A stretch of DNA of 64,000 nt from an uncultured Gammaproteobacteria bacterium. Its GTDB lineage: Bacteria > Patescibacteriota > Microgenomatia > Levybacterales > UBA12049. A program made the position numbers and the translations under genes. Shown here piece by piece: positions 11,532-54,452 of this stretch. The notes below the pieces were generated by a model. That model searched no databases and was not told the DNA's origin. It saw only the letters and a list, made by a program, of their open reading frames with translations. The stretch covers positions 1,692-65,691 of the forward strand of contig CAYQEJ010000001.1 of assembly GCA_964416505.1 (NCBI GenBank), given 5' to 3'. The stretch's first letter is position 1. Every line of letters begins with the position of its first letter.

Positions 11532-12800
11532 TTGGTTTTTGTTATGAGGGAAAAAGTTATACTTCATATAGATTTTGATTCTTTTTTCGCTTCATGCGAA
11601 CAACAGTTTAACCCTTCTTATAGAAATAGACCAATTGGTGTTACAGCCACAAACGGTAGAACTTGCATAATTGCGGCTTCCAGAGAGGCAAAGAAATTCG
11701 GAGTTAAAAATGTGACCAGGGTATGGGAAGCTAAGAAATTATGTCCTCAAATTATTCCGGTTCCTGCACATTTTACGAGATATTGGGAGATAACCCAGAA
11801 GTTCTTGAATATCTGTAAAGATTACTCTCCTTATGTAGAGCTTTTTTCTCTTGACGAAGTATTCATGGATATTTCATCAACAGAGCATTTGTTTGGTGGG
11901 CGTATGAAGATTATTGAAATCATTAAGAAAAGAATACGGGAGGAAATTGGCGAATACATTACCGTGTCAGTGGGCCTTTCTTATAATAAGCTTCTTGCGA
12001 AACTTGGATCAGGAATGAATAAGCCAAATGGATTTACCCATATTAAAAAAGATCAAGTTGAAGAAATTTATTCAAAGATTAAGCTTACTGATTTTTGCGG
12101 AATCGGAGAAAGAGTTGAGAAAAGATTAAATAAAATTGGAATTTTTACTCCACTTCAGCTTAGATCTGCATCTCTAGACATTCTAATTGAAGAGTTTAAA
12201 GATGTAGAAGGACATTTTTTAAAAAACTTAGGACTTGGTGAAGATGAACGTGATGTAATTCCCTATTATTTGCCTCAGGAGACAAAGTCGGTTGGTAGAA
12301 ATTATTGTATGCCGAAAAACGAATTTGATCAAAGAATAATTCTTCAAAATGTTTATGAACTTTGTGAGGAAATAGGAATAAAGCTAAGGCGTCTTAATAA
12401 GAAAGCCAGAACGATTGGTCTTTATCTAGGTGGAGCGCATACTTTTCATGGTAGAAAAACTTTAAGTTATCATATAGATAAAGGATCAGACATTTTTTCT
12501 CTTTGTAAAATTCTTTATGATTCATGGGGTTTAGCTAAGCTGCCCTACGAAGAAGGAATGGTTAGGCAAATTAGTGTTTGGGCTGGAAATTTAGAAGATA
12601 GTATAAATTTGACTCTTTCTCTTTTTGATACTCAGATAAAAACTTCTAAAATTCAACCGACAATTGATGCTTTAAATAAAAAGTTTGGACATAACACTAT
12701 AAGAAATGGTTTTGTGATGGATGGTCCAAATCTTAAAACAGTTCCAAATGGATTTATGGCAGATAGATTTGAACGAGCAAAATTAGTAGGAGTGATTTAG
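11532..12800 (+). CDS. dinB: DNA polymerase IV (Y-family)
   Basis: 'ILHIDFDSFFASCEQ' catalytic motif, 'FSLDEVFMD', and little-finger region. Confidence 0.85.
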   Translation: MVFVMREKVILHIDFDSFFASCEQQFNPSYRNRPIGVTATNGRTCIIAASREAKKFGVKNVTRVWEAKKLCPQIIPVPAHFTRYWEITQKFLNICKDYSPYVELFSLDEVFMDISSTEHLFGGRMKIIEIIKKRIREEIGEYITVSVGLSYNKLLAKLGSGMNKPNGFTHIKKDQVEEIYSKIKLTDFCGIGERVEKRLNKIGIFTPLQLRSASLDILIEEFKDVEGHFLKNLGLGEDERDVIPYYLPQETKSVGRNYCMPKNEFDQRIILQNVYELCEEIGIKLRRLNKKARTIGLYLGGAHTFHGRKTLSYHIDKGSDIFSLCKILYDSWGLAKLPYEEGMVRQISVWAGNLEDSINLTLSLFDTQIKTSKIQPTIDALNKKFGHNTIRNGFVMDGPNLKTVPNGFMADRFERAKLVGVI

Positions 12801-13606
12801 ATCAGGCAGACTTTTTTAGCTTCTGAAATTATATCGTCTCTTTTATTAAGAGGGATAGAGATTTGATTTAGGATTTCTGGATTTTCGCAAATACTTTTAA
12901 CCAAGACAACATTTTTGGCCAACAATTCTTGTTTTTGAGGCATAGAAAGAAATGATAATGCAGTTACAGGATAAAGCTTAAACTTTTCCACGAGTTCTCT
13001 CATGCTCTCTCCTTCCGGATGTTCCCAGCTTAAAACTTTTATACTTTGGCAGTCTGAGTACGCGAGTGCGTCAACTGTAACTTTTGTATTAGTAGCGAGC
13101 ATAACATCTGTAAATCCATGTTTTTCTTTCAGATCATCAAATCGGGCTTTTGTATAAAGAGCAACCTGAACATCTGATCTGGATCCGGGTCTATTGTGGA
13201 ATTTGCACTCAACCATTATTTTTTGAGTTTTATTTTTTGCAATAATATCTACTTCATGACTTACGCATTTGCCCATTAAGATTTCACCAACTTGTGTTTC
13301 ATATCCCTGAGCTTTTAAAATTTCTGCAACATATGCTTCGAATGGAAACCCCGTAGGCCCTAAATCCATGAGAGCGCGTTTTAAGGAGTATTTATTTTTA
13401 TAATAAGGGCTTTTTGTGTGTCCTAGATATTCTTCTAGATGGTAGTAGATTTCATGAGTTGGAATGTTTTCATAAAGATTTGATTTAATGTGCTCTAGAA
13501 CTTCTTCTTCAAGGTTTGCTGGAATCCCCGCTCGTCTAATTGAATCAATTAACTTTTTTTCGCTAAAATCTTCTGGTTGTCCATTTGCTTTTATAACAGT
13601 GGGCAT
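12797..13606 (-). CDS. ATP-cone domain fused to Mrr-type restriction-endonuclease-like domain
   Basis: N-terminal 'VIKANGQPEDFSEKKLIDSIRRAG' is NrdR-like ATP-cone. The central region has the Mrr_cat pattern (acidic/Lys residues 'HEVDIIAK...ECK'). Confidence 0.5.
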   Translation of the reverse strand: MPTVIKANGQPEDFSEKKLIDSIRRAGIPANLEEEVLEHIKSNLYENIPTHEIYYHLEEYLGHTKSPYYKNKYSLKRALMDLGPTGFPFEAYVAEILKAQGYETQVGEILMGKCVSHEVDIIAKNKTQKIMVECKFHNRPGSRSDVQVALYTKARFDDLKEKHGFTDVMLATNTKVTVDALAYSDCQSIKVLSWEHPEGESMRELVEKFKLYPVTALSFLSMPQKQELLAKNVVLVKSICENPEILNQISIPLNKRDDIISEAKKVCLI

Positions 13607-13618
13607 AAATTTATAATA

Positions 13619-15046
13619 TCAGGAAGAAACTTTTTTGAACATAAAGAAATTGCCTTCATTTTTTATTAGTGAAAAGTTAGGATTTTTCTTGATTTCTTCA
13701 AGTAGCATTTTTTCATCATCCTTTGTCGTATTTGTTATGAGAAATAAGACAAAGTCTGAATTTTCGATTCCTTGAGGGACTACGAAGATATTTTTTCTGT
13801 GAGAGAGATGAGAACCTAAATTATTTGAAGAGCTAACTAATGCTTCTTCAGGAATAGTTTTTAACATTTCATCAATGACGAGTCTTTCAGCCAAAGGTTT
13901 TTGGAACATATCTATATTTGGTTTTTTAGCAAATGGAAGTGGACCATAAGTATAAGAAGAAATTAAAGTTGTAATCAAAATCATAGGAATAAGCATATTG
14001 AAGGTAATTTCTGGAAAATATTTTTTAATTCCGAAAATTGCAAAAATTGCGGAAATGAAAATAAAAGGCGTAACTGTTGAGGAATATTGATAGTAAATTT
14101 GATGAAGAGGCGGGTTCTCACTTAATAAGCTTATTACTAAATCTGGTCCAGTAAATATTAAGTAAATTGGAGCAAGAAAAGAAAGATAAGAAAGAGGCAT
14201 AAATAATTGTTTGATGTAGCCCACCCTATCAGGTAAAAGAAGTGTTTCAATTGTTCTAACTGGATTTAAGAAAATATTTTTAATAATATTTCCAGGTGAA
14301 TCTCCGAAATCAGAATAATATTCAAGAGCAAAATGTGCAGATCCTAAAGAGCTTGGTATAGCAATCCAAACAAGGTAGTAAAACAAGAAACACGAGATGC
14401 TAAAAAGTAAAACTCCAAGTAGTTTCTTCTTATGAAAGAAGATTAAATAAAGCCCAAATAAAGAATTAATAAACCAAACTTGCTCTTTAGTAAGTCCTGA
14501 TAAAATGAGAAAAAATATACCAAGTGCGTAATTTTTTTTAATAAAAAAGTAAAAAGCACCTAGAATAAAAGTTGTTGCAAGCGAGACTGCATGAAAGTCA
14601 TACAGATTTACATAGTTAACTGCAGGATTTAGAAAATAGCACAAAGAAAGCGCAAGTGATAAAGTACGATTTTTTAAAATTTCTTTTGAGATAAGATAAA
14701 CAAACACTCCTCCCATTGAAAGGGTAATTGTCTGAATGAGTAAAAGCATTTTTGGATTTTCCCAAATCAAGTAAAATGGAGAAAGAAAAGCTAAGATAAA
14801 ATCTGCATGAAATGCAAGACGTGACACTTCGCGAATTCCGTTGGGGTCAGTCATTTTAAATATATTTCCATGCGCTGTGTTCCAAACAGTCTGGGCCATA
14901 TTTCCAAGGTCAAATCTTCCGGTGTAATAATTGTCGTATCTTAGAAAGCTAGCAACACTAAAATACACAGCATAAATAGCAGAAGCTAAGATTAGAATTA
15001 TCTCTTGCCAGTATAAGTTTATTTTTTTAATTTTAAATTTCTCCAT
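13619..15046 (-). CDS. DUF2079-family polytopic membrane protein (putative envelope glycosyltransferase-like)
   Basis: 'RFDLGNMAQTVWNTAHG...LAFHADFILAFLSPFY' matches the DUF2079 N-terminal motif. Paralog of the 51799 ORF. Confidence 0.5.
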   Translation of the reverse strand: MEKFKIKKINLYWQEIILILASAIYAVYFSVASFLRYDNYYTGRFDLGNMAQTVWNTAHGNIFKMTDPNGIREVSRLAFHADFILAFLSPFYLIWENPKMLLLIQTITLSMGGVFVYLISKEILKNRTLSLALSLCYFLNPAVNYVNLYDFHAVSLATTFILGAFYFFIKKNYALGIFFLILSGLTKEQVWFINSLFGLYLIFFHKKKLLGVLLFSISCFLFYYLVWIAIPSSLGSAHFALEYYSDFGDSPGNIIKNIFLNPVRTIETLLLPDRVGYIKQLFMPLSYLSFLAPIYLIFTGPDLVISLLSENPPLHQIYYQYSSTVTPFIFISAIFAIFGIKKYFPEITFNMLIPMILITTLISSYTYGPLPFAKKPNIDMFQKPLAERLVIDEMLKTIPEEALVSSSNNLGSHLSHRKNIFVVPQGIENSDFVLFLITNTTKDDEKMLLEEIKKNPNFSLIKNEGNFFMFKKVSS

Positions 15047-15951
15047 ATAATAATGATTAATAGAAAAGAAAGTTCAGAAATTATCAAAACAATTCTTGTA
15101 AAGATTGACATCGCTGCAGCATCAGATGTGCTAATAGCTTGAGATAAGCCTAGGATTACTATCAGTTCTCTAATTCCAAGCCCGGTTGGTGCTATAAAGG
15201 ATAGGTAGCCAACTAAAAGCGCAAAAGTGAACAGCGATGGTAAAACAACAATTTCTGGTTTATGAAATCCGAAAATGGAGGCAAAAACTACGTAATTTGC
15301 TAGTCCAAATATTGCATAAGTTATCAATGAGGTTAGTATTAGTTGAATTTTTCCATTTTTATTAAATCCTGGAAGAACTAAAGATGATAATATGCCTTTA
15401 TCTTTTGCATACCTATTTCTATAGAAAAAACCCGTTGCCAAAAAATAAATGGCTACGGCAATCATGCTTAATGGCACAAAAGCTTTAAGCTGACTCCAGT
15501 ATGTTGTGTTTCCAAGTATTACATAAATTATTAAAGTGGAAACTATGCCGCATCCTATTATGACTAGCTGTATGTCTGCGATTAACGCTGCTCCCAAAGA
15601 TTTATTATCTACTCCCAACTGCTTGAATAAAGCACCCCTACTTAAAAATGACCAAATATTCCCGGGCGTGTATCTTTTAACTTCAGACAAAGAAAATCTA
15701 TAGGTATTATCTAAGAAATTTATTTTATTTCCTTTTAGTTCTAAAGACCTTCTCCAGAGAACAGATCTCATCAAAAAATAAACAAAGAATAGAAAAACAC
15801 CAATGATTACGACGTATGGATTCACATCAGAGATATTAATATTTAACTTAGACTTTTGGTCTGCAATCAGCTTAATTACAAAAAATATTGAAACAATGGA
15901 AAGTGGCCAGCCAATTAAAAATTTTCCCCAGGAAATAATTCGCGAATTCAT
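15019..15951 (-). CDS. lysylphosphatidylglycerol-synthase TM-region (flippase-like, MprF/YbhN family) protein
   Basis: About 8 TM segments with the 'RYTPGNIWSFLSRG' and 'APTGLGIRE' motifs of UPF0104. Confidence 0.6.
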   Translation of the reverse strand: MNSRIISWGKFLIGWPLSIVSIFFVIKLIADQKSKLNINISDVNPYVVIIGVFLFFVYFLMRSVLWRRSLELKGNKINFLDNTYRFSLSEVKRYTPGNIWSFLSRGALFKQLGVDNKSLGAALIADIQLVIIGCGIVSTLIIYVILGNTTYWSQLKAFVPLSMIAVAIYFLATGFFYRNRYAKDKGILSSLVLPGFNKNGKIQLILTSLITYAIFGLANYVVFASIFGFHKPEIVVLPSLFTFALLVGYLSFIAPTGLGIRELIVILGLSQAISTSDAAAMSIFTRIVLIISELSFLLIIIIWRNLKLKK

Positions 15952-15999
15952 CTAACTAAATTATATCTAAAGTACTTTGCAAAACCAATCTTTTTGAAT

Positions 16000-16695
16000 T
16001 TAATTTCCAGTTTCTCCTTCGCTTCGGAATCTAAGATCAGCGCGTCTAATTTGTAAATATGGACTTTCTGAGTTATTTGCGAGAAAAGACATTACAGCTT
16101 TTCTAGCTGTTTTTAGGTTATGCCATAGCGCATGATGAGTGGTTATGTCACTTCCAAGTCTATCTAAATCACCAAGAATAAAATCTGTTGTTTGAAGTCT
16201 TCTGTTGTAAATAAAGAAGTAAGCATCACTTGGGATTAATATATTGTGATCTGCTGCCAATTTGGCATGTTGAATAATCGAATCTGTTAATGTTGATGGT
16301 ATGGCCTCGTCTTTTATTTGAGGCAGCCCGAGTTCAAATAAAGTTCTGTTGTTACTCAATGCTATTGCGGAATCTGCATTTCCATCTGTCATAAGTATGC
16401 TTGTTCTGTCTCCGCTAATTCTATATGTGGGAAATACCTTAAGACCAGCTTTTTTTGCTCTTCGATAATTATTAAATGCTCTTTCTGCACCTTGTTTTGC
16501 TCGAGTAGGGTCTCCTAAAAATTTTTTTACAATAAATCTTCTAGGACGACCAAGAACTAATGTTTCTGTTTGATAAATTCTTCCGTAAGCTCCCCCTCCG
16601 GGAATATACTTTTCACTAACGACCTGAATCCACGAAGGCGTATTGTCATATTTAGTATATTTAGCTGATTTTCCAGGTGTTAGTGTCTCAGACAT
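16000..16695 (-). CDS. hypothetical protein with protein-kinase-like motifs, atypical composition
   Basis: G-loop-like 'GGGAYGRIY', 'VKKF' lysine, and 'GDLDRLG' (DFG-like). Promoter TCCTATAG-TTGATT-17-TATAAT, with the -10 8 nt before the ATG. Confidence 0.35.
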   Translation of the reverse strand: MSETLTPGKSAKYTKYDNTPSWIQVVSEKYIPGGGAYGRIYQTETLVLGRPRRFIVKKFLGDPTRAKQGAERAFNNYRRAKKAGLKVFPTYRISGDRTSILMTDGNADSAIALSNNRTLFELGLPQIKDEAIPSTLTDSIIQHAKLAADHNILIPSDAYFFIYNRRLQTTDFILGDLDRLGSDITTHHALWHNLKTARKAVMSFLANNSESPYLQIRRADLRFRSEGETGN

Positions 16696-16703
16696 AGAGA
16701 ATG

Positions 16704-16741
16704 ATTATAAGCTATTTTAAGATCTAAATCAAACTATAGGA
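16704..16741 (-). promoter_or_regulatory. sigma70-type promoter with TCCTATAG upstream box for the 16000..16695 gene
   Basis: On the minus strand: tcctatagTTGATT-17nt-TATAAT-8nt-ATG. Confidence 0.55.
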
Positions 16742-16784
16742 TATAATTAATCCAATTTGAATATTGTTTTTAGGCATAGATTGG

Positions 16785-16825
16785 TCCTATAGTTAGTTGT
16801 AAGTACGTTTGATTTGTACTACAAT
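16785..16825 (+). promoter_or_regulatory. sigma70-type promoter with TCCTATAG box for the deacetylase gene
   Basis: tcctatagttagTTGTAA-17nt-TACAAT-7nt-ATG (16833). Confidence 0.5.
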
Positions 16826-16832
16826 ACGCATT

Positions 16833-17492
16833 ATGGAAAAATTAGCCAAATATGATCCTACAAAAGATAAACCAAGGATAGCTATTTCTTCTGATGACGG
16901 TCCGTACCCCAAAACTATAGAAGGGCTTTTGGGTGTACTGCATGATAAAAAAGTTCCGGCTACTCTCTTCTGGATTGCAGAAAACGCTAAAAGATTTCAA
17001 AAACAAGATCCTGTATGGTTTGAAAAAGTACTTTATCAGATAAACGACGAAGGACATGAGATAGGTCTTCATGGACCGAGCGATTATGAGCCGAGCGCCT
17101 GGACCAGAGCGGTTACCGCTCATGGACCACGTGAAATTAGACGTGCATATTGGGATCTGGAAGCAATGACTGGAATGGAGGTAAGGTATTTTAGACCACA
17201 TATTCTTCTCCAGCCGTTGGCGGTAGCCGCAGCAAGAATGCTCGGACTTCGAACTCCAATTCCTGATGCAGCTAACTATGCAGATGGTGCTGCTCCGGTC
17301 GATGAACAAGTTAGAAAATTTTCAGGTGGACATGAAGGAAGTATATTGGTATTTCATGACGGAATAAGTAAATATAGGCAGACCACGAATGCAGTTGCCG
17401 CTCTTCCTTTGGTAATTGATATTTTAAGAGCTAGAGGACTTGAACCAACAAATATATCAGGTCTTCCCCACGGATCCTACAGATCAATCTAA
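16833..17492 (+). CDS. polysaccharide deacetylase (NodB homology domain)
   Basis: 'IAISSDDGPY' (motif 1), 'EIGLHG' (motif 2) and 'RPH' (motif 3). The ORF-track start at 16809 is a TTG extension; the first ATG is at 16833. Confidence 0.65.
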   Translation: MEKLAKYDPTKDKPRIAISSDDGPYPKTIEGLLGVLHDKKVPATLFWIAENAKRFQKQDPVWFEKVLYQINDEGHEIGLHGPSDYEPSAWTRAVTAHGPREIRRAYWDLEAMTGMEVRYFRPHILLQPLAVAAARMLGLRTPIPDAANYADGAAPVDEQVRKFSGGHEGSILVFHDGISKYRQTTNAVAALPLVIDILRARGLEPTNISGLPHGSYRSI

Positions 17493-17530
17493 TTTGCTGT
17501 ATAATTTTATTTTGAAAGGGGGTGAATTAT

Positions 17531-17947
17531 ATGGCAAAATTAAATCCTTATTTGCATTTTAAAGATAATACTCGTGAAGCTATGAATTTTTATAAATCTA
17601 TATTTGGAGGAGAGCTCACGATGAGTACTTTCAGAGAAGGTATGAATGATAATGGTCCTGCGGCTGATAACATCATGCATGCGCAGCTTACTATTGGTCC
17701 TGAAATGACACTTATGGGATCTGATACTCCACCTGGTATGGAGATTAATCCGGGTTCAAGCGTAGGAATGTCTTTAAGCGGAGAAGCAAGTGATGAAGAG
17801 AAATTAAAAGGTTACTGGGAAGGATTATCAAACGGGGCGAATATAACTGTTCCTTTGGCTAGTTCTCCATGGGGAGATACTTTTGGAATGCTAACAGATA
17901 AATTTGGAATGGAATGGATGGTAAATATCGCTGGTAAGAAGGAATAA
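17531..17947 (+). CDS. VOC-superfamily PhnB-like protein (glyoxalase/bleomycin-resistance fold)
   Basis: 'YLHFKDNTREAMNFYKSIFGG'. SD GGGGGTG 6 nt before the ATG at 17531; the track start at 17522 is GTG. Confidence 0.55.
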   Translation: MAKLNPYLHFKDNTREAMNFYKSIFGGELTMSTFREGMNDNGPAADNIMHAQLTIGPEMTLMGSDTPPGMEINPGSSVGMSLSGEASDEEKLKGYWEGLSNGANITVPLASSPWGDTFGMLTDKFGMEWMVNIAGKKE

Positions 17948-18002
17948 TCCTTCAGTGGAAATTCTTAAAAGCTCATTTTCCGTGAGCTTTTTTGATGGGA
18001 AA

Positions 18003-18746
18003 TTAAACTTTTGCTTCTTCTGATCTAGGAAGATCAATATTTTTTAAAATATCCCTAATTCTAAATGGTCTTCCTGCCAATGCTGGTGCAGCTGATCGTA
18101 CAGGGAGAGCCAAAGCTATTTGAATTAGATTAAGATCCATATAATCTTCAGCAGCATCAATCTGGTAGCCTGGCGCATTTACGGGTGAGTTGTGTTTGTA
18201 AGGCTCAAAAGACATGGACATTATTCCATAAGGTAAAAGTCTTTCATATGGAGTAGCAAAGCGTTCAAGAGTATCTACGAGAGCCATTCCTTTTAAAGCA
18301 AGAAATCTAATTTCTTCAGGATCTACTTCGTCTTCACCTTCTGCCATTTTTGTTTCAACTACAAGCCCCTTGTCTTTAGTTGATATTCTAATAGAATTTA
18401 CTTCAGGAGCTCTTTGATCCTCAGGAATAACAATTAAGCCATTATTAGAAATACGTACAGCGCTTTTATCTTTAAAAGCTATTGCTGATAAATTTAATAT
18501 TGCTTCGTATCTAGCGAAATACATTACTGATTCGAATTCTTGCTGAAGCATTTCTCCGGATGATGAGTTTATTCTTACGACACCGTATCTTCCATCACTT
18601 AAATTACCAGTAACGATATAATGAGATGCAACATATCTTCTATTTTCCCTATCGCTTGAATTGTAAAGTCCTACTCGCACATCTGGATGCGCTTCTAGGA
18701 TTGCTTCTACTGGTGTTAATGAAGGACCTTCTATAACTCTCGACAT
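18003..18746 (-). CDS. hypothetical protein, atypical composition
   Basis: The ORF-track start at 18764 is a TTG extension; the first ATG is at 18746. It is preceded by tcctatagTTGAAA-17-TAAAAT-8-ATG. Confidence 0.45.
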   Translation of the reverse strand: MSRVIEGPSLTPVEAILEAHPDVRVGLYNSSDRENRRYVASHYIVTGNLSDGRYGVVRINSSSGEMLQQEFESVMYFARYEAILNLSAIAFKDKSAVRISNNGLIVIPEDQRAPEVNSIRISTKDKGLVVETKMAEGEDEVDPEEIRFLALKGMALVDTLERFATPYERLLPYGIMSMSFEPYKHNSPVNAPGYQIDAAEDYMDLNLIQIALALPVRSAAPALAGRPFRIRDILKNIDLPRSEEAKV

Positions 18747-18754
18747 AGATGGGA

Positions 18755-18790
18755 ATTTTACCAAAATAAGAGGTTATTTTCAACTATAGG
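18755..18790 (-). promoter_or_regulatory. TCCTATAG-box sigma70 promoter immediately downstream of tRNA-Lys(CTT)
   Basis: Minus-strand sequence tcctatagTTGAAAataacctcttattttggTAAAAT. Confidence 0.5.
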
Positions 18791-18796
18791 ACTAAG

Positions 18797-18868
18797 TGAG
18801 CCGCCAGAGACTCGAACTCTGAACCGATTCCTTAAGAGGGAATTGCTCTACCATTGAGCTAGCGGCCC
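18797..18868 (-). tRNA. tRNA-Lys (anticodon CTT)
   Basis: Cloverleaf readable: acceptor GGGCCGC/GCGGCTC, D-loop GCTCAATGGTAGAGC, anticodon stem ATTCC/GGAAT with loop CTCTTAA, T-arm GGTTCGAGTCT. No encoded CCA. Confidence 0.8.
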
Positions 18869-18914
18869 TAAAAAATTGTTCGCATTTTTTCAGGGTAAAC
18901 CCGAATTAATGCAT

Positions 18915-19169
18915 TTATTTTGTTAATTTAGCAATCAATTTCAATTTATATTCTTTTTTCCATTTTTTGATCGCTGCTTCTCTTTTCCTGGCTTCAGACT
19001 GGTTTGTATACAATTCCGAATATACTAAACTTACTGGTCTTTTGCCTCGAAGTGATTTCGCACCTCGATTACTTGTATTATGTTCTAAGACACGTCTATT
19101 TATATCTGTTGTTATGCCTGTATATAAACTTTCGTCGCTACATTTTACTATATAAACGTGCCAATTCAT
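18915..19169 (-). CDS. GIY-YIG nuclease-family protein (standalone, about 84 aa)
   Basis: 'WHVYIVKCSDESLYTGITTDINRRVLEHN...GAKSLRG...LVYSE' is a canonical GIY-YIG core. The long ORF-track form overlaps tRNA-Arg, so I trimmed it to the internal ATG at 19169. Confidence 0.7.
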   Translation of the reverse strand: MNWHVYIVKCSDESLYTGITTDINRRVLEHNTSNRGAKSLRGKRPVSLVYSELYTNQSEARKREAAIKKWKKEYKLKLIAKLTK

Positions 19170-19227
19170 AATCAACAAATGTTTGCCCTGATGTTTGCAC
19201 TGAAAAATTTCGCTAAATTTTTTAGTG

Positions 19228-19300
19228 CGCGTCTGACAGGAGTCGAACCCGCAACCCCCTGGTCCGAAGCCAGGTGCTCTATCCATTGAGCTACAGACGC
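19228..19300 (-). tRNA. tRNA-Arg (anticodon TCG, tentative)
   Basis: Acceptor GCGTCTG/CAGACGC, D-loop AGCTCAATGGATAGAGC, anticodon stem CCTGG/CCAGG with loop CTTCGGA, T-arm GGTTCGACTCC. Confidence 0.65.
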
Positions 19301-19345
19301 AGATCAATTTTATCAAATCGTCTTGTAGTACTCAAATGAGGAGTA

Positions 19346-20959
19346 TTATGATTTCAGGAGTTTCTGAGCTGTTTTTCCAGGCACTAGAACAGCATTTATT
19401 CCCTCAACGGCTCCAATCAATCTACCCTCAGAATAAACACTTACTGCCCCTTCTATTCCTCTTTTTCCTTCGCTTTTTGAAAATGAATGGTATTCTATTC
19501 CGTCCCCAGCTTTTACTCTTTCGCTCGTGAATTCTACTCTTCCTAATCTTGTAAATAATGGCACTTTACTTCCTTCATCATCTACTTGAGAAATTCCTAC
19601 TGTTTGAGCCGCCCCTTCTATTAGTTGATCTTCCAAAAGAGTATCATTCTCATCTCCTTCAAGGGGTTTTGTTTTTAGTCCAATTATTCTTGTTAATCTT
19701 TCACCTGTATCAATATTTGAAATCGTAACATTATATGCTCCATCAAGTCTTACGCCAACAGAAACAGCTATTGTTTTGCTTCCGTCAGCGGGAATTACAC
19801 CAAAAAATTCTGCGCTTTCCAAACCAGCAAGTCTTAATCTTCCATCAATTCTTCCAAGTGTTCTTTCCATTTTTTCAATAGTTTCTAAAGCGGCTCTAAT
19901 TTGCTTATGTCCTGGAAGTATTTTTGGTAATCCGTTCTCATCTGAAAAATGCCCCTCAGCGTGATCCGGTGATACATGTGAGATTCCTACCCAGGTTCTA
20001 TGATTTGGTTTTAAATCATCAATTAATTCAGGTTCTTCCCCTCTTGTAGCTTGACTAAAAGAAGCAATTGCTCTGCCTATGGTTTCTTGAACACCACCGA
20101 TTTCTACCAATCTTTGTAATGTATTTACATAAACTTGAGGTGTATCGTAAATTGTTTCAAGAGCAGTTTGTGCATCCGAAACTCCATCAAAAAATTCTGT
20201 GTATCCGCTTTTGATATCAGGATTAGATATTAAGCTAACAACTTTATTACCGACTTGCTCTGGTGTAACTTCATTTGGGAGACCTAATTTATTTGTAACT
20301 TGAGCATGTTGCGTCTCAGCGCTTGAATCTATACCATGTGCAAACCTAACGTTGTAAGTCCCGGCAACTATAGGTGGGCAAACTTCCAAGAATCTAATTC
20401 CTCTATCTTTCATCTCGGGAATTCTTCTTCTAAGAGCTTTTACATCTGGGTGTTTGCTTGCAGCTACTGCATTGTATTGTTGAAGTGAAAATGCTCTTTC
20501 AAGTTGAGGCATAAAATGCCCTGGAACACTTTGCATCCTAATCACTGTTCCTCCACTTCTCATGTGGGGTAATGCTTGATCTAAAAGATCTTGAGAAGCT
20601 TCCTGATTTAGAGCTGGGGTGGGTCCAGATGTACTAAGAATTAAGAAATCAACTTCTCCACCAAGAGTTGCTAAAGCTCCATTAAAAAAATCACTTCTAC
20701 CTTCAGGAGTTGAGATGTCTGCAGCAACTGCATGTGCTTCTCCACCGGCCTCCGCAACAGAGTCCAAAACTTTTTGTGCCCTTTTAGGTTTATCTTTATA
20801 TGAAAATACTACTCTTACTCCTTCTCTTGTAAGAGATTGAACTATAGCACCACCTACGTCTCTGCTTCCTCCTGTAAGAATTGCAGTCTTGCCTGCTAGA
20901 GGTCTATCTGCTGATCTTAAAATGTTAGGGTCTGTAGTGCCTATATGTTCTACTGCCAT
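19346..20959 (-). CDS. short-chain dehydrogenase/reductase-like N-terminal domain fused to a large unknown C-terminal region, atypical composition
   Basis: Rossmann 'GKTAILTGGSRDVGGAIV'. 537 aa. Promoter TTGACA-18-TATAAT, with the -10 7 nt before the ATG. Confidence 0.5.
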   Translation of the reverse strand: MAVEHIGTTDPNILRSADRPLAGKTAILTGGSRDVGGAIVQSLTREGVRVVFSYKDKPKRAQKVLDSVAEAGGEAHAVAADISTPEGRSDFFNGALATLGGEVDFLILSTSGPTPALNQEASQDLLDQALPHMRSGGTVIRMQSVPGHFMPQLERAFSLQQYNAVAASKHPDVKALRRRIPEMKDRGIRFLEVCPPIVAGTYNVRFAHGIDSSAETQHAQVTNKLGLPNEVTPEQVGNKVVSLISNPDIKSGYTEFFDGVSDAQTALETIYDTPQVYVNTLQRLVEIGGVQETIGRAIASFSQATRGEEPELIDDLKPNHRTWVGISHVSPDHAEGHFSDENGLPKILPGHKQIRAALETIEKMERTLGRIDGRLRLAGLESAEFFGVIPADGSKTIAVSVGVRLDGAYNVTISNIDTGERLTRIIGLKTKPLEGDENDTLLEDQLIEGAAQTVGISQVDDEGSKVPLFTRLGRVEFTSERVKAGDGIEYHSFSKSEGKRGIEGAVSVYSEGRLIGAVEGINAVLVPGKTAQKLLKS

Positions 20960-20966
20960 GTCGCGA

Positions 20967-20996
20967 ATTATAGGCTAATTTGCTGGGTTATGTCAA
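20967..20996 (-). promoter_or_regulatory. consensus sigma70 promoter for the 19346..20959 gene (leaderless spacing)
   Basis: Minus strand: TTGACA-18nt-TATAAT-tcgcgac-ATG. Confidence 0.55.
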
Positions 20997-21072
20997 TTCA
21001 AGAAAATTTATTCTTGCGCTATTATTACTTATTTTTAATCTAATAAATAAATTTTCTTTTGATAATAAATTC

Positions 21073-21468
21073 ATGTTAGAAGCGTTTCCCATGGGTGGCG
21101 CTTCATCTTTAGAAGATCAAGCTGCCCCAGAAGAATCAGATCCTGGCACTATTATCACAAGAGAAGAAGCGGAAATTCATGTCAGAAAAATACGAAATGG
21201 TTTTTGGGCTGATATGCGACCAGGAGATAGGAGAATTGCAAATGCTCATGCAAGGATGGCGATAGCAGATGTGGCTTTTGAAATTTTAGGAAGGGAAGAT
21301 TTAGATCCTACCCAGATAGTCCGCTCGACTTATCTTTTGATCGATGCCAGAGATAGGCTTATTCATTCAACATATGGGCATTTTGGAAGAGCTCAAGATT
21401 TGTGGGCTGATAAGGTCGCTGAAGTTGTAAGAATAAGATTATTATCTTCACAGAAGCCTAATGAATAA
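21073..21468 (+). CDS. hypothetical protein, atypical composition
   Basis: The ORF-track start at 20980 is a TTG extension that overlaps the divergent promoter; the first ATG is at 21073 (MLEAFPMGG...). Confidence 0.35.
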   Translation: MLEAFPMGGASSLEDQAAPEESDPGTIITREEAEIHVRKIRNGFWADMRPGDRRIANAHARMAIADVAFEILGREDLDPTQIVRSTYLLIDARDRLIHSTYGHFGRAQDLWADKVAEVVRIRLLSSQKPNE

Positions 21469-22066
21469 ATGCAGTTCTATGATGATCGCAGATTCCAAAC
21501 TTTTTAATTGCGATTCTGTGTTCGAGTGTTCCATATCCTTTATTTTGCGCGAAATTATAATCTGGAAATTTATCATGAAGTTTTGTCATGAGACTGTCTC
21601 TATGAACTTTAGCAATTATAGAAGCTGCAGCGATTGAAATCGATTTGGAATCCCCTTTTATAATAGTTTTTTGGTTTGGTAATCTTAAATCAAACCCATC
21701 TACCAAAATAAAATGGTTGGATAATTTTGGAATTAATTTTTTTAAAATTCTACTAAAGACTTCGAAATTTGCTTTCCCAATCCCCTCTCGATTTATAAAA
21801 TCTAATTCTACTTCAGCAATTTCCCAAATAGAATTTTGTTTGATTAATTCGGAAAGTTTCTCTCTTAGTTTTGGTTTAAGTAGTTTAGAATCATTTATTT
21901 CATCTAGGAAGTTATGTCGAAAATTTGGCTTAAAAATTACACCGGCAGCAACAATCGGGCCTGCAAAAGCTCCACGTCCCACTTCATCAAGTCCAATTAC
22001 ATTTTCAATTCCCCGGTTCCAGTGAATTAGCTCTTCAGTAAATGTTGGTTTGTTCTGAATTTTCAT
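21458..22066 (-). CDS. rnhB: ribonuclease HII
   Basis: 'GLDEVGRGAFAGPIVAAGVIF' has the catalytic DEVGRG motif, and 'ASIIAKVHRD' is also typical. Confidence 0.85.
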   Translation of the reverse strand: MKIQNKPTFTEELIHWNRGIENVIGLDEVGRGAFAGPIVAAGVIFKPNFRHNFLDEINDSKLLKPKLREKLSELIKQNSIWEIAEVELDFINREGIGKANFEVFSRILKKLIPKLSNHFILVDGFDLRLPNQKTIIKGDSKSISIAAASIIAKVHRDSLMTKLHDKFPDYNFAQNKGYGTLEHRIAIKKFGICDHHRTAFIH

Positions 22067-23168
22067 CAGTTAAAAGTGGTGTTTCTATTTCTTCAAGTTC
22101 TGGAAGATTGGAGACGTTAGTTTTTAGTTCTCCGTAAAAGTTGGTCATATTGATATCAAGTTTTTTAATCAAGTCTTCCTGTTTTTTCCATCTAAGAGTT
22201 GTGGCTCTTTGGTCAGCTTGAAGAGAGGCGCGAAGTGCATTTACATTATCAAAATGACTTTGCATTCTATGTTTGAAAGCGTCACTCATCATGTAGTCTC
22301 TTATTTTTCCCCATTCTTCTTCTGTGTGATTTGCTCCCGATTTGGCATGTGACACACTGGTAATGAGGAATCTGACGTATCTACAAATACTAAGAGCATG
22401 CTCATAAGTGGTTATCCAGACTCCGTCAATTCTGTCAAAGGAGCTTGAATCTTGAGGGAGCACTTGTGAAACTATTATGGCTTCCGTTGCTGAAATTTTT
22501 CCTGCATCTTCTTTAAGTTTTGTAAGCCAACCTTTACTCCATGCTTTTGTTCTTTTTGTTTCCCAGATTATAGATCCAACCACTTTTCCGTTAAACTTAA
22601 CCTTCTGCCAGATATCTCCGCCTTCAACGCCTTTTGGAATAGGAGTAAATTCATCATTTGGAAATGTTTCTTTTAGTTTTTCTTCGAGATTTAATTCAAG
22701 TGCTTCTCCTTGAAGCTGTTGTGATCCTTGCTCAAGCTTTTTCTTTAGATCTTCATTTGCGCGCCTTAAGTCTTCTGCAAGGCGTTTGATCTGGTCCATT
22801 TGAATATCTTTTTCTTTTAATTTCAGTGCCTGAGATTCTTGCGCTTCTTTTTGAGCCTGTTTCATCGCTTCTTCTTTTATTTTTTCTTCAGCCTTCTCGC
22901 GCTCAGCTTGCTCTTTTTCCAGTTTTTCTAAAAGTTCTTCTTGTTTTCTCTTTGCTAATAATAGAGCGTCTGAATTTTCCTTAGCTTCTTTTTGAAACTC
23001 TTCTCTAAGTTCTTTTTCCCTTTTAGCAGCTTCTTTGGCTTTTTCTTCTTCAAATTGGGCTTTAAGTTTTTTGCTTTCCTCGTCTCTAACTTGTGCTTGA
23101 AGTTCATGTACTATAGCTTCGGAAAGTTCTACTTGTTTACCGCAATGAGGACATTTAACTGAATCCAT
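22035..23168 (-). CDS. DUF2130-family protein (N-terminal zinc ribbon, long coiled coil, C-terminal globular domain)
   Basis: Begins 'MDSVKCPHCGKQVELSEA', then E/K-rich coiled coil. Overlaps rnhB by 32 nt. Confidence 0.55.
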   Translation of the reverse strand: MDSVKCPHCGKQVELSEAIVHELQAQVRDEESKKLKAQFEEEKAKEAAKREKELREEFQKEAKENSDALLLAKRKQEELLEKLEKEQAEREKAEEKIKEEAMKQAQKEAQESQALKLKEKDIQMDQIKRLAEDLRRANEDLKKKLEQGSQQLQGEALELNLEEKLKETFPNDEFTPIPKGVEGGDIWQKVKFNGKVVGSIIWETKRTKAWSKGWLTKLKEDAGKISATEAIIVSQVLPQDSSSFDRIDGVWITTYEHALSICRYVRFLITSVSHAKSGANHTEEEWGKIRDYMMSDAFKHRMQSHFDNVNALRASLQADQRATTLRWKKQEDLIKKLDINMTNFYGELKTNVSNLPELEEIETPLLTDENSEQTNIY

Positions 23169-23230
23169 AATTCTACCTATGATACGCGCCTGAGCTTTTC
23201 ATTTCAAGTCTAATTTGTTAGGATTTAGTT

Positions 23231-23635
23231 ATGCATGGAATTTTAAGAAATATAACGTTTAATTCTATTTCACTTTTTCTTCTCGCAGAAATAATCTCAG
23301 GCGTAAAAATAATGGGAGGATATCAGGCGATCATAGCTGCTGGGATAATTCTTACTATTCTAAATATGGTAGTAAAGCCAATTATAAATATTTTCTCAAT
23401 TCCTTTTAATATGGTAACTCTGGGTCTTTTCTCTTTTCTTACAAATGCAATAGTTTTGTATCTTCTAACAATTTTTGCGCCAAATATTTCTGTGTCAGCT
23501 TTTACATTTAGTGGTTATACTTGGGCTGGGTTTGTAATTCCTGCTATGAAATTTAATACTTTATTTGCTTTTATAGTATCGGCTGCAGTTTTATCTATAA
23601 TCATTCATTTCTTCAAGTGGCTCACTAAAGAATAA
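23231..23635 (+). CDS. DUF360 / phage-holin-superfamily-IV-like 4-TM membrane protein
   Basis: 'GGYQAIIAAGIILTILNMVVKPII' pattern. Confidence 0.5.
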   Translation: MHGILRNITFNSISLFLLAEIISGVKIMGGYQAIIAAGIILTILNMVVKPIINIFSIPFNMVTLGLFSFLTNAIVLYLLTIFAPNISVSAFTFSGYTWAGFVIPAMKFNTLFAFIVSAAVLSIIIHFFKWLTKE

Positions 23636-23637
23636 AT

Positions 23638-24132
23638 TTATCTTCTAAATCCAAAAGAATCCATTCCTTCATAATAAATTCCGTATGCAAATTCACTTAC
23701 ATCTTCCTCAACATCTTCGCTTGGCATACTTCCTCTTAATTTGTCGAATCGAATTATTATTCTTTGAAGTTGAAAAGGTGTAAGGACTCCAAATTTTATA
23801 GCAAAGTAAAAATCATTTGAAATTATATCTTTAACTACTGAAGTATCTATGGCATCATTTTCTACATTGGCTGAAAACTTTCTATGCGCTTTTTCTGCAT
23901 CAGCCTTGGCTTTTTCAATTGCTTGCTGGTCATTTACGAGAGCATCTCTAACTTTCCCCAAGTCATATCCAAGTGAAAAGTTCTCTATAGCCATATGTAT
24001 TCCTTGTGCTGTGACAGAAGCTGGACACCTCATGCTTGCTCTCACAAACATCCCAAGTCCTACATTTGCTAAAGTTCCCCTTGTTTCGGGTGGCTGTGGG
24101 ATTCCATATAATAGTGGTCTGTCTGGGCTCAT
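23638..24132 (-). CDS. hypothetical protein, atypical composition
   Basis: 164 aa. Promoter TTGCAA-17-TAGAAT-8-ATG shares the palindromic ATTTGCAAAT with the divergent secG promoter. Confidence 0.4.
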   Translation of the reverse strand: MSPDRPLLYGIPQPPETRGTLANVGLGMFVRASMRCPASVTAQGIHMAIENFSLGYDLGKVRDALVNDQQAIEKAKADAEKAHRKFSANVENDAIDTSVVKDIISNDFYFAIKFGVLTPFQLQRIIIRFDKLRGSMPSEDVEEDVSEFAYGIYYEGMDSFGFRR

Positions 24133-24199
24133 GACGGGTTATTCTACAGATTTCCAAATTTATTTGCAAATGAAGAGCATTTGAAGGTATAATAGCCTC

Positions 24200-33594: not shown

Positions 33595-33632
33595 TCCTAT
33601 AGTTTGACATTTTTAGCCTCGATTGATATACT
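33595..33632 (+). promoter_or_regulatory. TCCTATAG-box consensus promoter of the cassette gene
   Basis: tcctatagtTTGACA-17nt-TATACT-11nt-ATG (33644). Confidence 0.55.
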
Positions 33633-50024: not shown

Positions 50025-50044
50025 AGAAGATTAGGAAGTTTTTG

Positions 50045-50116
50045 TGAGCCGGCAGGGGATCGAACCCTGGACCAAGAGCTTAAAAGGCTCCTGCTCTACC
50101 GCTGAGCTACCGGCCC
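50045..50116 (-). tRNA. tRNA-Lys (anticodon TTT)
   Basis: Acceptor GGGCCGG/CCGGCTC, D-loop AGCTCAGCGGTAGAGC, anticodon stem GGAGC/GCTCT with loop CTTTTAA, T-arm GGTTCGATCCC. Confidence 0.8.
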
Positions 50117-50255
50117 TGAACAATTTCTTTAGAAATTTTCAGGGCAAACCCTATATTTCTAATGAGCCTATTATATAGGATTAGGCGTGAGGTTGACAAG
50201 TTAAACCTTTTCTAACAAAATTTGCAATTTTTTTATCCTGTAGTATAATCCAGCC

Positions 50256-54413: not shown

Positions 54414-54452
54414 TCCTATAGTTTGACTTTTAGCTTCGTTTTTTGATAAAAT
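54414..54452 (+). promoter_or_regulatory. TCCTATAG-box promoter of the 54458 gene
   Basis: tcctatagtTTGACT-16nt-GATAAA-7nt-ATG. Confidence 0.5.

Follow-up and report, generated by a model that had tools for sequence, protein, structure and literature searches.

The segment between an MprF-like gene and rnhB in the 64,000-nt stretch of DNA that we analyzed (the window) is native, fast-changing DNA of a Microgenomates-type Patescibacteria (CPR) genome. As a whole, it is best explained (at a probability of roughly 70%) by two layers: a conserved tRNA/nuclease core and a plastic accessory slot with a FAS-like remnant, in which accessory genes would have been gained, lost, and reshuffled singly around the core. 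An initial annotation had described the region as a tRNA-linked island; its observations were partly confirmed and its interpretation partly supported. Comparisons were made with related contigs and loci (L001-L004, L081-L085, L087, L088, L090, L097, L154, and L169), which are phylogenetically non-independent and whose taxonomy is drawn from few named matches.

Both flanks were as initially annotated. On the right, rnhB (21458-22066, minus strand) encodes RNase HII (PF01351, E = 6.6e-34). The left flank is an ORF for an MprF-like (LPG_synthase_TM-type) membrane protein (15019-15951, minus strand); it had no match of its own in a Pfam search, and its orthologues in L001-L003 and L081 are 35-51% identical. 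Since the L081 orthologue carries PF03706 (LPG_synthase_TM), the label is acceptable. Besides the nuclease gene, the initial annotation counted five genes, three with recognizable motifs and two unknowns, while we found six: kinase-like, NodB, VOC/PhnB-like, unk253, SDR fusion, and unk162. The gene that was missed, or else taken as one of the unknowns, encodes a VOC/glyoxalase-fold, PhnB/YjdN-like protein (17522-17947, plus strand; PF06983, 2e-11; PF00903, 1.9e-7) that also matched NF007537 (6e-12, under that model's cutoff) and has 74-78% identical orthologues in L002, L003, and L004. Among the three motifs, those of NodB (PF01522) and the N-terminal SDR domain (PF00106) held. The kinase-like protein (16000-16695, minus strand; 231 aa, 244 representative clusters) belongs to an uncharacterized family and had no match in Pfam, NCBIfam, or PADLOC; weak matches to protein kinases were the only ones obtained. 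In its family K57, D157, and D176 are invariant and G35 and G38 near-invariant, and L001, L003, and L088 each have an orthologue in this slot. The NodB/CE4-type polysaccharide deacetylase (16833-17492, plus strand; 5e-15) is 219 aa long from its ATG, the mechanical ORF beginning at TTG 16809, and has nine homologues (63-98% identity); in L087 and L088 a gene of this kind also fills this slot. The species-restricted ORFan unk253 (18003-18746, minus strand; 247 aa from ATG) gave a single match, 100% identical, among 5.8 billion clusters; it had no family match in Pfam, NCBIfam, or PADLOC and is absent from L001-L004 and L081. Finally, unk162 (20980-21468, plus strand) is a small conserved gene of unassigned function, without a family match in the same three collections, and its true start is probably ATG 21073 or 21091. 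A 57% identical homologue lies in the same place beside rnhB in L004, and contigs L083-L085, at 92-96% identity, lack 20983-21485, a strain-level indel.

The SDR fusion (19346-20959, minus strand) joins a FabI/FabL-type enoyl-reductase SDR to a double-hotdog dehydratase-like domain in 537 aa. It matched PF00106 (1.7e-14, N-terminal) and PF13561, and carries a Y162-x6-K169 motif among the invariant residues identified. Its 21 homologues are all 404-574 aa long, and the named ones come from Levybacteria/Microgenomates. Structure models reached pLDDT values of 89.8 and 90.4, and a Foldseek search with the C-terminal model returned PKS/FAS DH domains and ACOT thioesterases (E 3e-9 to 5e-7), the thioesterase folds scoring as well as the DH folds. 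The resemblance to type II FAS lies in the Yx6K motif and PF13561 match shared with FabI/FabL, in the likeness of the C-terminal model to double-hotdog dehydratases (FabZ/FabA or PKS DH), and in the KR, KAS, KAS III, and methyltransferase genes beside the fusion in relatives. However, in the window the reductase and hotdog form one chain, a fusion found in only ~21 Levybacteria/Microgenomates-type sequences. A five-gene FAS-like cluster (KR, ER-DH, KAS, methyltransferase, KAS III) was found in L082 and L169; the fusion lies inside the cluster in L082 and adjoins rnhB in the window, L081, and L083-L085. In closer relatives the spot beside rnhB is taken by a different lone member, KAS or KAS III. 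These remnants are 31-36% identical to the cluster genes, and independent gains are possible. No ACP or other FAS gene was found in the 64-kb window. The SDR fusion is probably one survivor of a FAS-like cluster such as stands beside rnhB in a distant relative.

A comparison of synteny, as proposed with the initial annotation, showed that relatives carry different genes between rnhB and the MprF-like/DUF2079 genes, and the region is therefore a variable slot; the same genes in the same order were not found in relatives. The cargo is different in each relative, yet the same genes recur in the slot in other orders, from a lineage-restricted pool (kinase-like, NodB, VOC, 188-aa, 200-aa, unk162, and an ORFan). 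Single-gene indels and reshuffling separate even strains with 92-99% identity. Conceivably, the change in cargo was mostly gene gain, by cassette-like exchange among Patescibacteria through recombination at conserved flanks, with the FAS-like genes acquired independently. Gain contrasts here with differential loss from an ancestral set. Most of the variable slot genes have their own native promoter, unk253 is an ORFan, insertions and deletions occur at the strain level, and the KAS/KAS III remnants are highly divergent, all of which would suit gain. Published work moreover finds that HGT in Patescibacteria stays mostly within the phylum, glyoxalase and GIY-YIG genes being among those transferred (PMC12455944). 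However, the same genes occupy the same slot in relatives of graded distance, the fusion keeps its place at rnhB or within the cluster, and codon usage is native; predominant gain is a tentative alternative, tenable but the less probable direction of change.

The core was borne out as initially described, an 84-aa standalone GIY-YIG ORF bracketed by two tRNAs: tRNA-Arg(TCG) (19227-19300; ARAGORN; Rfam, 67.6 bits; CCA not encoded), the nuclease gene (18915-19169; PF01541, E = 4.8e-18), and tRNA-Lys(CTT) (18796-18868; ARAGORN; Rfam, 66.5 bits), all on the minus strand. The protein is a minimal GIY-YIG nuclease of the UPF0213/prokaryotic Slx1-like type. It matches PDB entries 1zg2 (B. halodurans BH0048; 3.6e-13) and 1ywl (E. 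faecalis EF2693; 1.4e-12), likewise single domains of 80-100 aa with conserved GIY, YIG, Arg, and Glu residues, and differs from these in that its gene sits between two tRNAs with co-evolving spacers and a box. Y16, G18, R26, H30, and E64 are conserved, and the catalytic residues are invariant. The order and strand of tRNA-Arg(TCG), GIY-YIG, and tRNA-Lys(CTT) are kept in L001, L002, L003, L081, L085, L087, and 13 metagenome loci. The nuclease is 57-78% identical to that of the window, while rnhB of those genomes is 66-74% identical to its window counterpart; the nuclease gene was found in every close relative having the cassette region; L004 has no tRNA/GIY-YIG cassette within 20 kb of rnhB. 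The initial annotation had taken the gene for a homing-type passenger. Instead, nothing else in the segment is so well conserved: it is kept between the same tRNAs clade-wide under purifying selection (dN/dS 0.07-0.21), and a Pfam search for a DNA-binding domain in the protein found none. Upstream, a promoter-like TTGAGT-N17-TAAAAT (19307-19335, minus strand) ends 6 nt before tRNA-Arg +1 and is a candidate operon promoter; its -10 element and the junction with tRNA-Arg are conserved in L085 despite a different upstream gene.

Linkage to tRNAs extends across the nuclease family. A tRNA lies within 250 nt of the gene in 33 of 80 metagenomic relatives, where ~2% would be expected by chance (from 11 tRNAs in 374 kb of flanks), a 20-fold enrichment that recurs with many tRNA species. 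A co-oriented tRNA is upstream in 31/80 and tRNAs are on both sides in 14/80. In an NJ tree, proteins with the same tRNA partner cluster together, giving Arg/Lys, Gln, and Ser clades. The prokaryotic Slx1-like family has been described as vertically inherited and of unassigned function, a fusion to TrmH giving a hint of a role in RNA metabolism (PMC1564403), and neither that survey nor full-text literature searches yielded a mention of a nuclease between two tRNAs with co-evolving spacers and a box. Our results hint at a tie between tRNA operons and this orphan nuclease family.

In the window, the spacers on either side of the ORF are complementary. The right arm (18865-18902, minus strand) consists of a GGGTTTACCCTGA box (18890-18902) and a palindrome whose 3' strand extends into nt 1-3 of tRNA-Lys; the left arm (19193-19228, minus strand), its inverted copy, begins with a palindrome from the 3' end of tRNA-Arg, after which comes a CAGTGCAAAC box (consensus CAG[C/T]GTAAAC). 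Together they make up inverted repeat I1 (36 nt, 78% complementary), which abuts both tRNAs. The minimum-free-energy fold of this region uses the long-range stem (z = -3.5), whereas the spacers of L001 each form a hairpin locally. At a given locus the spacers have evolved together: the energy of the 5'/3' spacer duplex averaged -27.1 kcal/mol when the pair was cognate and -20.2 when it was non-cognate (permutation P = 1e-4), and the junction-proximal bases form three complementary types (CTAAAAAAT/ATTTTTTAG, GAATA/TATTC, and TTCG/CGAA). Moreover, TTTACCCTGA occurs 18 times in 525 kb against 1 expected; 15 of the 18 copies are within 300 nt of the nuclease ORF, every one on the ORF strand, and 0 copies were found in control loci (1.2 Mb). 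In some loci the inverted boxes beside the ORF are tandemly multiplied.

Most likely, this core is a tRNA operon whose processing would free the nuclease mRNA. tRNA-Arg(TCG), the nuclease, and tRNA-Lys(CTT) would form one transcription unit, with the nuclease mRNA bracketed by the complementary spacers exactly from the 3' end of tRNA-Arg to the 5' end of tRNA-Lys. Maturation of the tRNAs, by RNase Z at tRNA-Arg and RNase P at tRNA-Lys, would release or limit this mRNA, RNase III possibly acting on the spacer duplex, and nuclease expression would be coupled to transcription of the tRNA operon. In mitochondrial transcripts, tRNAs punctuate the RNA, and in bacterial rrn operons RNase III processing stems flank the rRNAs. 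The window's arrangement is similar in that an RNA is delimited by tRNAs and complementary flanks can form a long stem from the mature ends. Only 0-5 nt separate the ORF from its tRNAs in L002, L087, and L154, as in tRNA punctuation. The arrangement differs in that the RNA would come from a bacterial protein-coding gene, rather than being an organellar mRNA or rRNA. Alternatively, the nuclease may simply hitch-hike on a strong tRNA promoter, the spacers being independent trailer and leader hairpins and the nuclease, spacers, and tRNAs having no functional link. Since a near-copy of the box, with a hairpin, precedes a tRNA-Lys(TTT) that has no GIY-YIG gene, the spacers could be ordinary pre-tRNA trailer/leader structures; each is palindromic and can fold locally, and since L002 and L087 are entirely without spacers, these are not essential. 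However, independent hairpins would sit poorly with the co-evolution of the spacers, with the box accompanying the GIY-YIG gene into tRNA-Leu and tRNA-Ser contexts, with the enriched linkage to many tRNA species, and with the fusion of family members to tRNA methyltransferase-type domains (PMC1564403), and we consider hitch-hiking doubtful.

Less probable still is a homing origin, in which the nuclease would be a free-standing homing endonuclease like SegB of phage T4, or a descendant of one, that had invaded tRNA clusters. The tRNA gene cluster of T4 encodes SegB, a homing enzyme of the GIY-YIG type (PMC2330249), and the segB gene, like the nuclease gene of the window, lies between tRNA genes on the same strand. 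In favor of homing, the tRNA contexts of the nuclease gene number at least eight, L081, L090, and L097 have additional paralogues interspersed with tRNAs, inverted and sometimes multiplied boxes flank the ORF, and putative viral contigs carry relatives with up to 68% identity. On the homing reading, the spacers and GGGTTTACCCTGA/CAGCGTAAAC boxes would be recognition or insertion sites and the varied tRNA partners a trace of past mobility. SegB, however, is a protein of ~220 aa with DNA-binding modules, belongs to the homing-endonuclease/UvrC branch, and is sporadic among phages. The window's protein is an 84-aa Slx1-branch domain lacking such a module and conserved clade-wide under strong purifying selection, in every close relative with the cassette region. 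Further against homing, clades are faithful to a single tRNA partner, the box also precedes the nuclease-less tRNA-Lys(TTT), viral copies have neither tRNAs nor boxes, and the Slx1-like branch has been described as vertically inherited and separate from that of the homing endonucleases (PMC1564403).

Composition and integration features likewise indicated native DNA. Mean GC was 0.381 in the supposed island genes and 0.355 ± 0.039 across the remaining 59 ORFs (Mann-Whitney P = 0.066). All of the island genes fall inside the window's GC range (0.26-0.45); they are GC-richer, as initially annotated, only relative to the two adjacent membrane-protein genes. The extra GC resides in codon positions 1 and 2, while GC3 (0.245 in the segment and 0.232 elsewhere in the window; P = 0.68) and synonymous-codon typicality (P = 0.68) are native, and four segment genes have promoter elements in common with backbone genes. 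No integrase or recombinase families were found among the ORFs at 12.8-24.1 kb, no partial tRNA copies >12 nt or att-like repeats in the window, and no block-wise presence/absence among relatives; a defense-system search of the segment gave no matches, and those in phage and plasmid collections were limited to the tRNAs. A classical tRNA-integrated island, in which a site-specific recombinase brought in five or six genes together from a GC-richer donor with the GIY-YIG gene as a co-travelling homing gene, would fit tRNAs inside a segment of variable content unlike that of relatives and slightly above its two neighbors in GC, and islands have been reported in Patescibacteria (PMC12455944), but it is very improbable, largely refuted by the tested lack of integrase, att or tRNA-fragment repeats, compositional bias, and block structure, by tRNAs lying mid-segment rather than at an edge, by genes varying one by one, and by homologues of each gene confined to the same lineage and slot.

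The promoter box that the initial annotation placed against tRNA-Lys is a TCCTATAG box (18784-18791, minus strand), 5 nt from the tRNA 3' end and followed by TTGAAA-N17-TAAAAT (18783-18755), which together form the unk253 promoter (18755-18791, minus strand). This 8-mer has 7 copies in the window compared with 1.98 expected (0/100 shuffles reached 7). The box is not a -10 element; it precedes a -35-like TTGnnn hexamer by 0-4 nt. Two further boxes (16734-16741, minus strand, and 16785-16792, plus strand) make up a divergent promoter region (16734-16792), each preceding a TTGnnn-N17-TAnAAT promoter with the ATG 7-8 nt past the -10. The SDR fusion has a perfect TTGACA-N18-TATAAT (20967-20996, minus strand), conserved in L084, and its ATG lies 7 nt past the -10 (leaderless).

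The DNA between a left-flank gene for a 310-aa membrane protein (15019-15951), whose orthologue carries LPG_synthase_TM, and the RNase HII gene rnhB on the right (21458-22066; E=6.6e-34) is flanked as the initial annotation had described it, i.e., by an MprF-like gene and rnhB. On the minus strand, ARAGORN and Rfam placed tRNA-Lys(CTT) at 18796-18868 and tRNA-Arg(TCG) at 19227-19300, and the GIY-YIG gene said to lie between them was found there, also on this strand, as an 84-aa ORF (18915-19169; Pfam GIY-YIG PF01541, E=4.8e-18). The other genes of the segment number six rather than five: a kinase-like protein (231 aa), a NodB deacetylase (PF01522, 5e-15), a VOC/PhnB-like protein (PF06983, 2e-11), an ORFan of 247 aa (unk253), a 537-aa SDR fusion, and unk162, a small gene without a family name. 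Although the NodB protein scored 56 bits against PF01522 (gathering cutoff 23.1), it is not assignable to a specific enzyme, since its scores against the NCBIfam equivalog models were all far under cutoff. The kinase-like protein has invariant K57, D157, and D176 and near-invariant G35 and G38, and matched kinase profiles weakly (E 0.0007-0.6), while unk253 had a single match, identical to itself, among 5.8 billion clusters. No paralogues turned up when the window was searched for them. At the right border, unk162 is convergent with rnhB, the 3' ends overlapping by 11 nt (21458-21468), and the rnhB C-terminus departs from that of a sister strain exactly at the unk162 insertion/deletion point; a DUF2130 gene and the start of rnhB overlap by 32 nt (22035-22066).

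Using rnhB as a probe, we found four species-level relatives (67-74% identity); more loci, among them near-identical strains (92-99% nucleotide identity), came in through SDR-fusion and NodB homologues. The four rnhB-probe relatives (L001-L004; CAZAZU010000001.1 and others) were deposited as 'uncultured Gammaproteobacteria' MAGs. That label is probably wrong, since their gene repertoire is Patescibacteria-like, the main contig measures 785 kb, and their nearest named homologues belong to Levybacteria, Microgenomates, and Patescibacteria UBA10001, all of which indicates Patescibacteria. The order tRNA-Arg(TCG), GIY-YIG, tRNA-Lys(CTT), hereafter the cassette, was kept in every relative showing the region. 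In the proposed synteny comparison, the genes around it differ between relatives and do not recur with the same content in the same order. Between rnhB and the MprF-like/DUF2079 genes (the slot), L001 has KAS III, cassette, kinase-like gene, and a 188-aa gene; L002 and L003 have KAS, VOC, cassette, (kinase-like gene), and the 188-aa gene; L081 has the SDR fusion, cassette, a second GIY-YIG gene, and genes of 208 and 186 aa; L087 has a 188-aa gene, NodB, and an inverted cassette; L088 has NodB, a 187-aa gene, the kinase-like gene, and tRNA-Lys; and L004 has unk162, KAS, MBL, and VOC, without a cassette within 20 kb. Even the 92-99% identical strains vary by indels, as they lack unk162 (window 20983-21485), a further gene of 200 aa separates their SDR fusion from tRNA-Arg, and a 164-aa gene (d164; 23638-24132, in the window stretch 23638-24186) is absent from two of them (L083 and L084) and present in L001 and L003. 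Since both the gene sets of relatives and those of strains differ, the slot is plastic, yet its genes are drawn from one lineage-restricted pool. The 164-aa gene, another single-gene indel, lies just outside the reported segment, and an ATP-cone + Mrr_cat (restriction-endonuclease-like) fusion at 12797-13606 adjoins DUF2079 in all relatives, with 85% identity in L001 and L003.

PF01541 spans residues 2-73 of the 84-aa protein, i.e., the GIY-YIG catalytic domain is present. Searches of the PDB matched 1zg2 (3.6e-13) and 1ywl (1.4e-12), and Y16, G18, R26, H30, and E64 were invariant in 8 sequences. By sequence, the protein is assigned to UPF0213, the prokaryotic Slx1-like branch, which is described as minimal, vertically inherited, and without known function, with a fusion to TrmH as a hint of a role in RNA metabolism (PMC1564403). 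The gene had been taken for a homing-type passenger. GIY-YIG homing endonucleases of the I-TevI / Seg type possess extra DNA-binding domains and are sporadic or decaying, whereas here the catalytic domain fills the 84 aa, the gene is present in all cassette-bearing relatives, and its dN/dS against them is 0.07-0.21. The passenger reading is not supported. The nuclease might conceivably descend from a SegB-like homing gene (PMC2330249), but homing would not be its present behaviour.

Scanning metagenomes with an alignment of these GIY-YIG proteins gave 80 loci, of which 33 have a tRNA within 250 nt, as compared to ~2% expected from tRNA density in the flanks of the same loci. The tRNA was upstream and co-oriented in 31 loci, tRNAs lay on both sides in 14, and an opposite-strand tRNA occurred in one. 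Partners include Arg/Lys(CTT), Gln(TTG/CTG), several Ser, Glu/Lys(TTT), Met/Met, Ala, and Leu tRNAs. Since the proteins cluster by tRNA partner in a neighbour-joining tree, each tRNA association is long-standing and stable. None of nine relatives from putative viral contigs was linked to a tRNA. L081 (9587-9859), L090 (1244-1453), and L097 (4311-4508) contain a second GIY-YIG paralogue, divergent in sequence (31-42% identity), which lies among the same tRNAs, either after tRNA-Lys or before tRNA-Arg. Literature searches on YhbQ/UPF0213/COG2827 brought up no relevant work on linkage to tRNAs.

The GIY-YIG ORF is enclosed by an inverted repeat of 36 nt (18865-18900 / 19193-19228) that overlaps both tRNA ends, and the minimum-free-energy fold of the window cassette uses the long-range stem formed by this repeat (z=-3.5). 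Among 13 loci, duplexes of the spacers separating the ORF from its tRNAs had energies of -27.1 kcal/mol for cognate 5'/3' pairs vs -20.2 kcal/mol for non-cognate ones (permutation p=1e-4), and the spacer bases beside the tRNAs alternate among three mutually complementary types. Local hairpins were preferred in the L001 spacers, and z-scores were mixed when similar complementary flanks were sought in the Gln and Ser clades. The spacers also carry a conserved box, which reads CAG(C/T)GTAAAC after tRNA-Arg (12/21) and GGGTTTACCCTGA before tRNA-Lys(CTT) (13/19), and its copies are sometimes tandemly multiplied. The 10-mer TTTACCCTGA occurs 18 times in 525 kb, where 1 copy is expected; 15 copies lie within 300 nt of a GIY-YIG ORF, all on the strand of that ORF, and 1.2 Mb of control loci contained none. 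Tandem box units (3-5 copies, period ~20 nt) are found on both sides of the ORF in L101, L125, L106, and L109, the last of these having a 4-copy repeat downstream of the GIY-YIG ORF.

The inverted repeats could conceivably be transposon-like ends of a mobile GIY-YIG element. This possibility is weakened by two observations. The leader of tRNA-Lys(TTT) (50044-50116, minus strand), in an upstream region (50117-50255) with a clear TTGTCA-N17-TATAAT promoter, contains the one-mismatch box GGGTTTGCCCTGA (50139-50151) with no nuclease gene there. Moreover, spacers are altogether missing from L002 and L087, where the ORF starts 3-4 nt past tRNA-Arg and its stop codon lies within tRNA-Lys. The tRNA-Lys(TTT) leader also forms a hairpin whose 3' strand ends in tRNA nt 1-3, a design shared with the tRNA-Lys(CTT) leader. 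The spacers and the box may act for the nuclease, for the tRNAs, or for both.

The best-supported reading is that the nuclease gene is embedded in a native tRNA operon, where tRNA processing would delimit the nuclease mRNA. The operon sits in a plastic slot, among accessory genes specific to the lineage. More tentatively, at a probability of roughly three in ten, UPF0213/Slx1-like nucleases might be integral, co-processed parts of tRNA operons in Microgenomates-type and related bacteria, accompanied by co-evolving complementary spacers as a dedicated cis element. The nuclease or the tRNA-processing machinery would then recognise the GGGTTTACCCTGA/CAGCGTAAAC box pair in these spacers. If true, a universally distributed nuclease family would be tied to tRNA gene expression, precursor processing, or tRNA-locus maintenance. 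The tRNA linkage is 20-fold enriched, clade-stable, and co-oriented; along with the co-evolving flanks and the conserved box of 10-13 nt, it offers a lead that can be tested for a nuclease family that is widespread and has solved structures but no known function, and the tRNA-operon arrangement is a concrete handle on what Slx1-like GIY-YIG proteins do. We found no description in the literature of such proteins embedded in tRNA operons with co-evolving flanks and box.

The segment had been read as a classical island integrated at the tRNAs. A Pfam scan of all ORFs from 12797 to 24132 detected no integrase-type families, and PADLOC reported no integrase and no defence system. The suggested search for tRNA 3'-end duplications delimiting the island, performed by blastn-short with all four tRNAs against the window, showed no partial copy >12 nt in 15-22 kb, and a repeat search of the window gave no att-like direct repeat of a tRNA 3' end. 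Phage and plasmid collections matched only the two tRNA genes by blastn, while Rfam, even at E<=1, returned tRNAs only for 18600-19500, all further RNA families, group I introns included, giving no match. Presence and absence in relatives was not block-wise; the genes vary one by one. The genes had also been called GC-richer, which is true relative to the two membrane-protein neighbours only and not to the window (mean GC 0.381 vs 0.355 +/- 0.039, p=0.066; 66 window ORFs). The proposed codon-usage analysis likewise indicated native rather than foreign composition, as GC3 (0.245 vs 0.232, p=0.68; the same 66 ORFs) and synonymous-codon typicality (p=0.68) did not distinguish these genes from other window ORFs. 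Since the GC surplus over the window is confined to codon positions 1 and 2, it reflects the amino-acid composition of soluble proteins, and differences of this kind can imitate foreign DNA. With no integrase, no att repeat, native composition, and no block pattern, the classical island model is essentially refuted and the segment, considered as an island, is ordinary. It illustrates that small CPR genomes vary through single genes, turned over as lineage-specific cassettes with native promoters, rather than through integrase-borne islands.

Homologues of the SDR fusion (n=21) are all 404-574 aa, and the named ones are Levybacteria/Microgenomates. Its N-terminal domain contains LTGGSRDVGG, a Rossmann TGxxxGxG motif, and matched PF13561 (6.8e-13), and Y162-x6-K169, the FabI/FabL spacing, is invariant in 22 sequences; these features suggest an enoyl-ACP reductase of the FabI/FabL type. 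Since Foldseek with the full-length model was swamped by SDR matches, the C-terminal 263 aa were modelled alone and gave a predicted double hotdog fold (pLDDT 90.4), which matched FAS/PKS DH domains and ACOT thioesterases (E 3e-9 to 5e-7, TM 0.5-0.66). G336, H337, P345, and P349 of this domain are invariant or near-invariant, and ACOT thioesterases score as well as dehydratases. Microgenomates-type bacteria are usually regarded as unable to make fatty acids. The data point to a compact FAS-like set in such bacteria, comprising a KR-type SDR, the ER + double-hotdog (ER-DH) fusion, KAS, a SAM methyltransferase, and KAS III. On the 1.14-Mb contig L082 (9100-15194) these five genes stand in that order, followed by obg and rnhB, and L169 (7074-15550) has the same five. 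L082 and L169 are two distant Microgenomates-type contigs, and no ACP gene was identified with their FAS-like set. The lone KAS or KAS III adjoining rnhB in L001-L004 is homologous to the cluster genes (31-36% identity). Differential retention of an ancestral FAS-like cluster is the simplest reading of these similarities, though the lone genes beside rnhB may instead have been gained independently.

The window contains 7 copies of the sequence TCCTATAG, as compared to 1.98 expected. Its five intergenic copies, at 16734-16741(-), 16785-16792(+), 18784-18791(-), 33595-33602(+), and 54414-54421(+), all lie 0-4 nt upstream of TTGnnn-N17/18-TAnAAT and precede the kinase-like gene, NodB, unk253, and two unlinked family-less genes (33623 and 54458), which may together form a regulon of accessory genes. 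A role of TCCTATAG/CCTATART as the -10 box was rejected, as a promoter scan placed TCCTATAG just upstream of the -35. Since the ATG follows the -10 by 5-11 nt, the mRNAs would be leaderless or near-leaderless. The SDR fusion has a perfect TTGACA-N18-TATAAT promoter. The genes of the segment thus rely on promoter elements that also serve the rest of the window. A promoter-like TTGAGT-N17-TAAAAT ends 6 nt upstream of tRNA-Arg.
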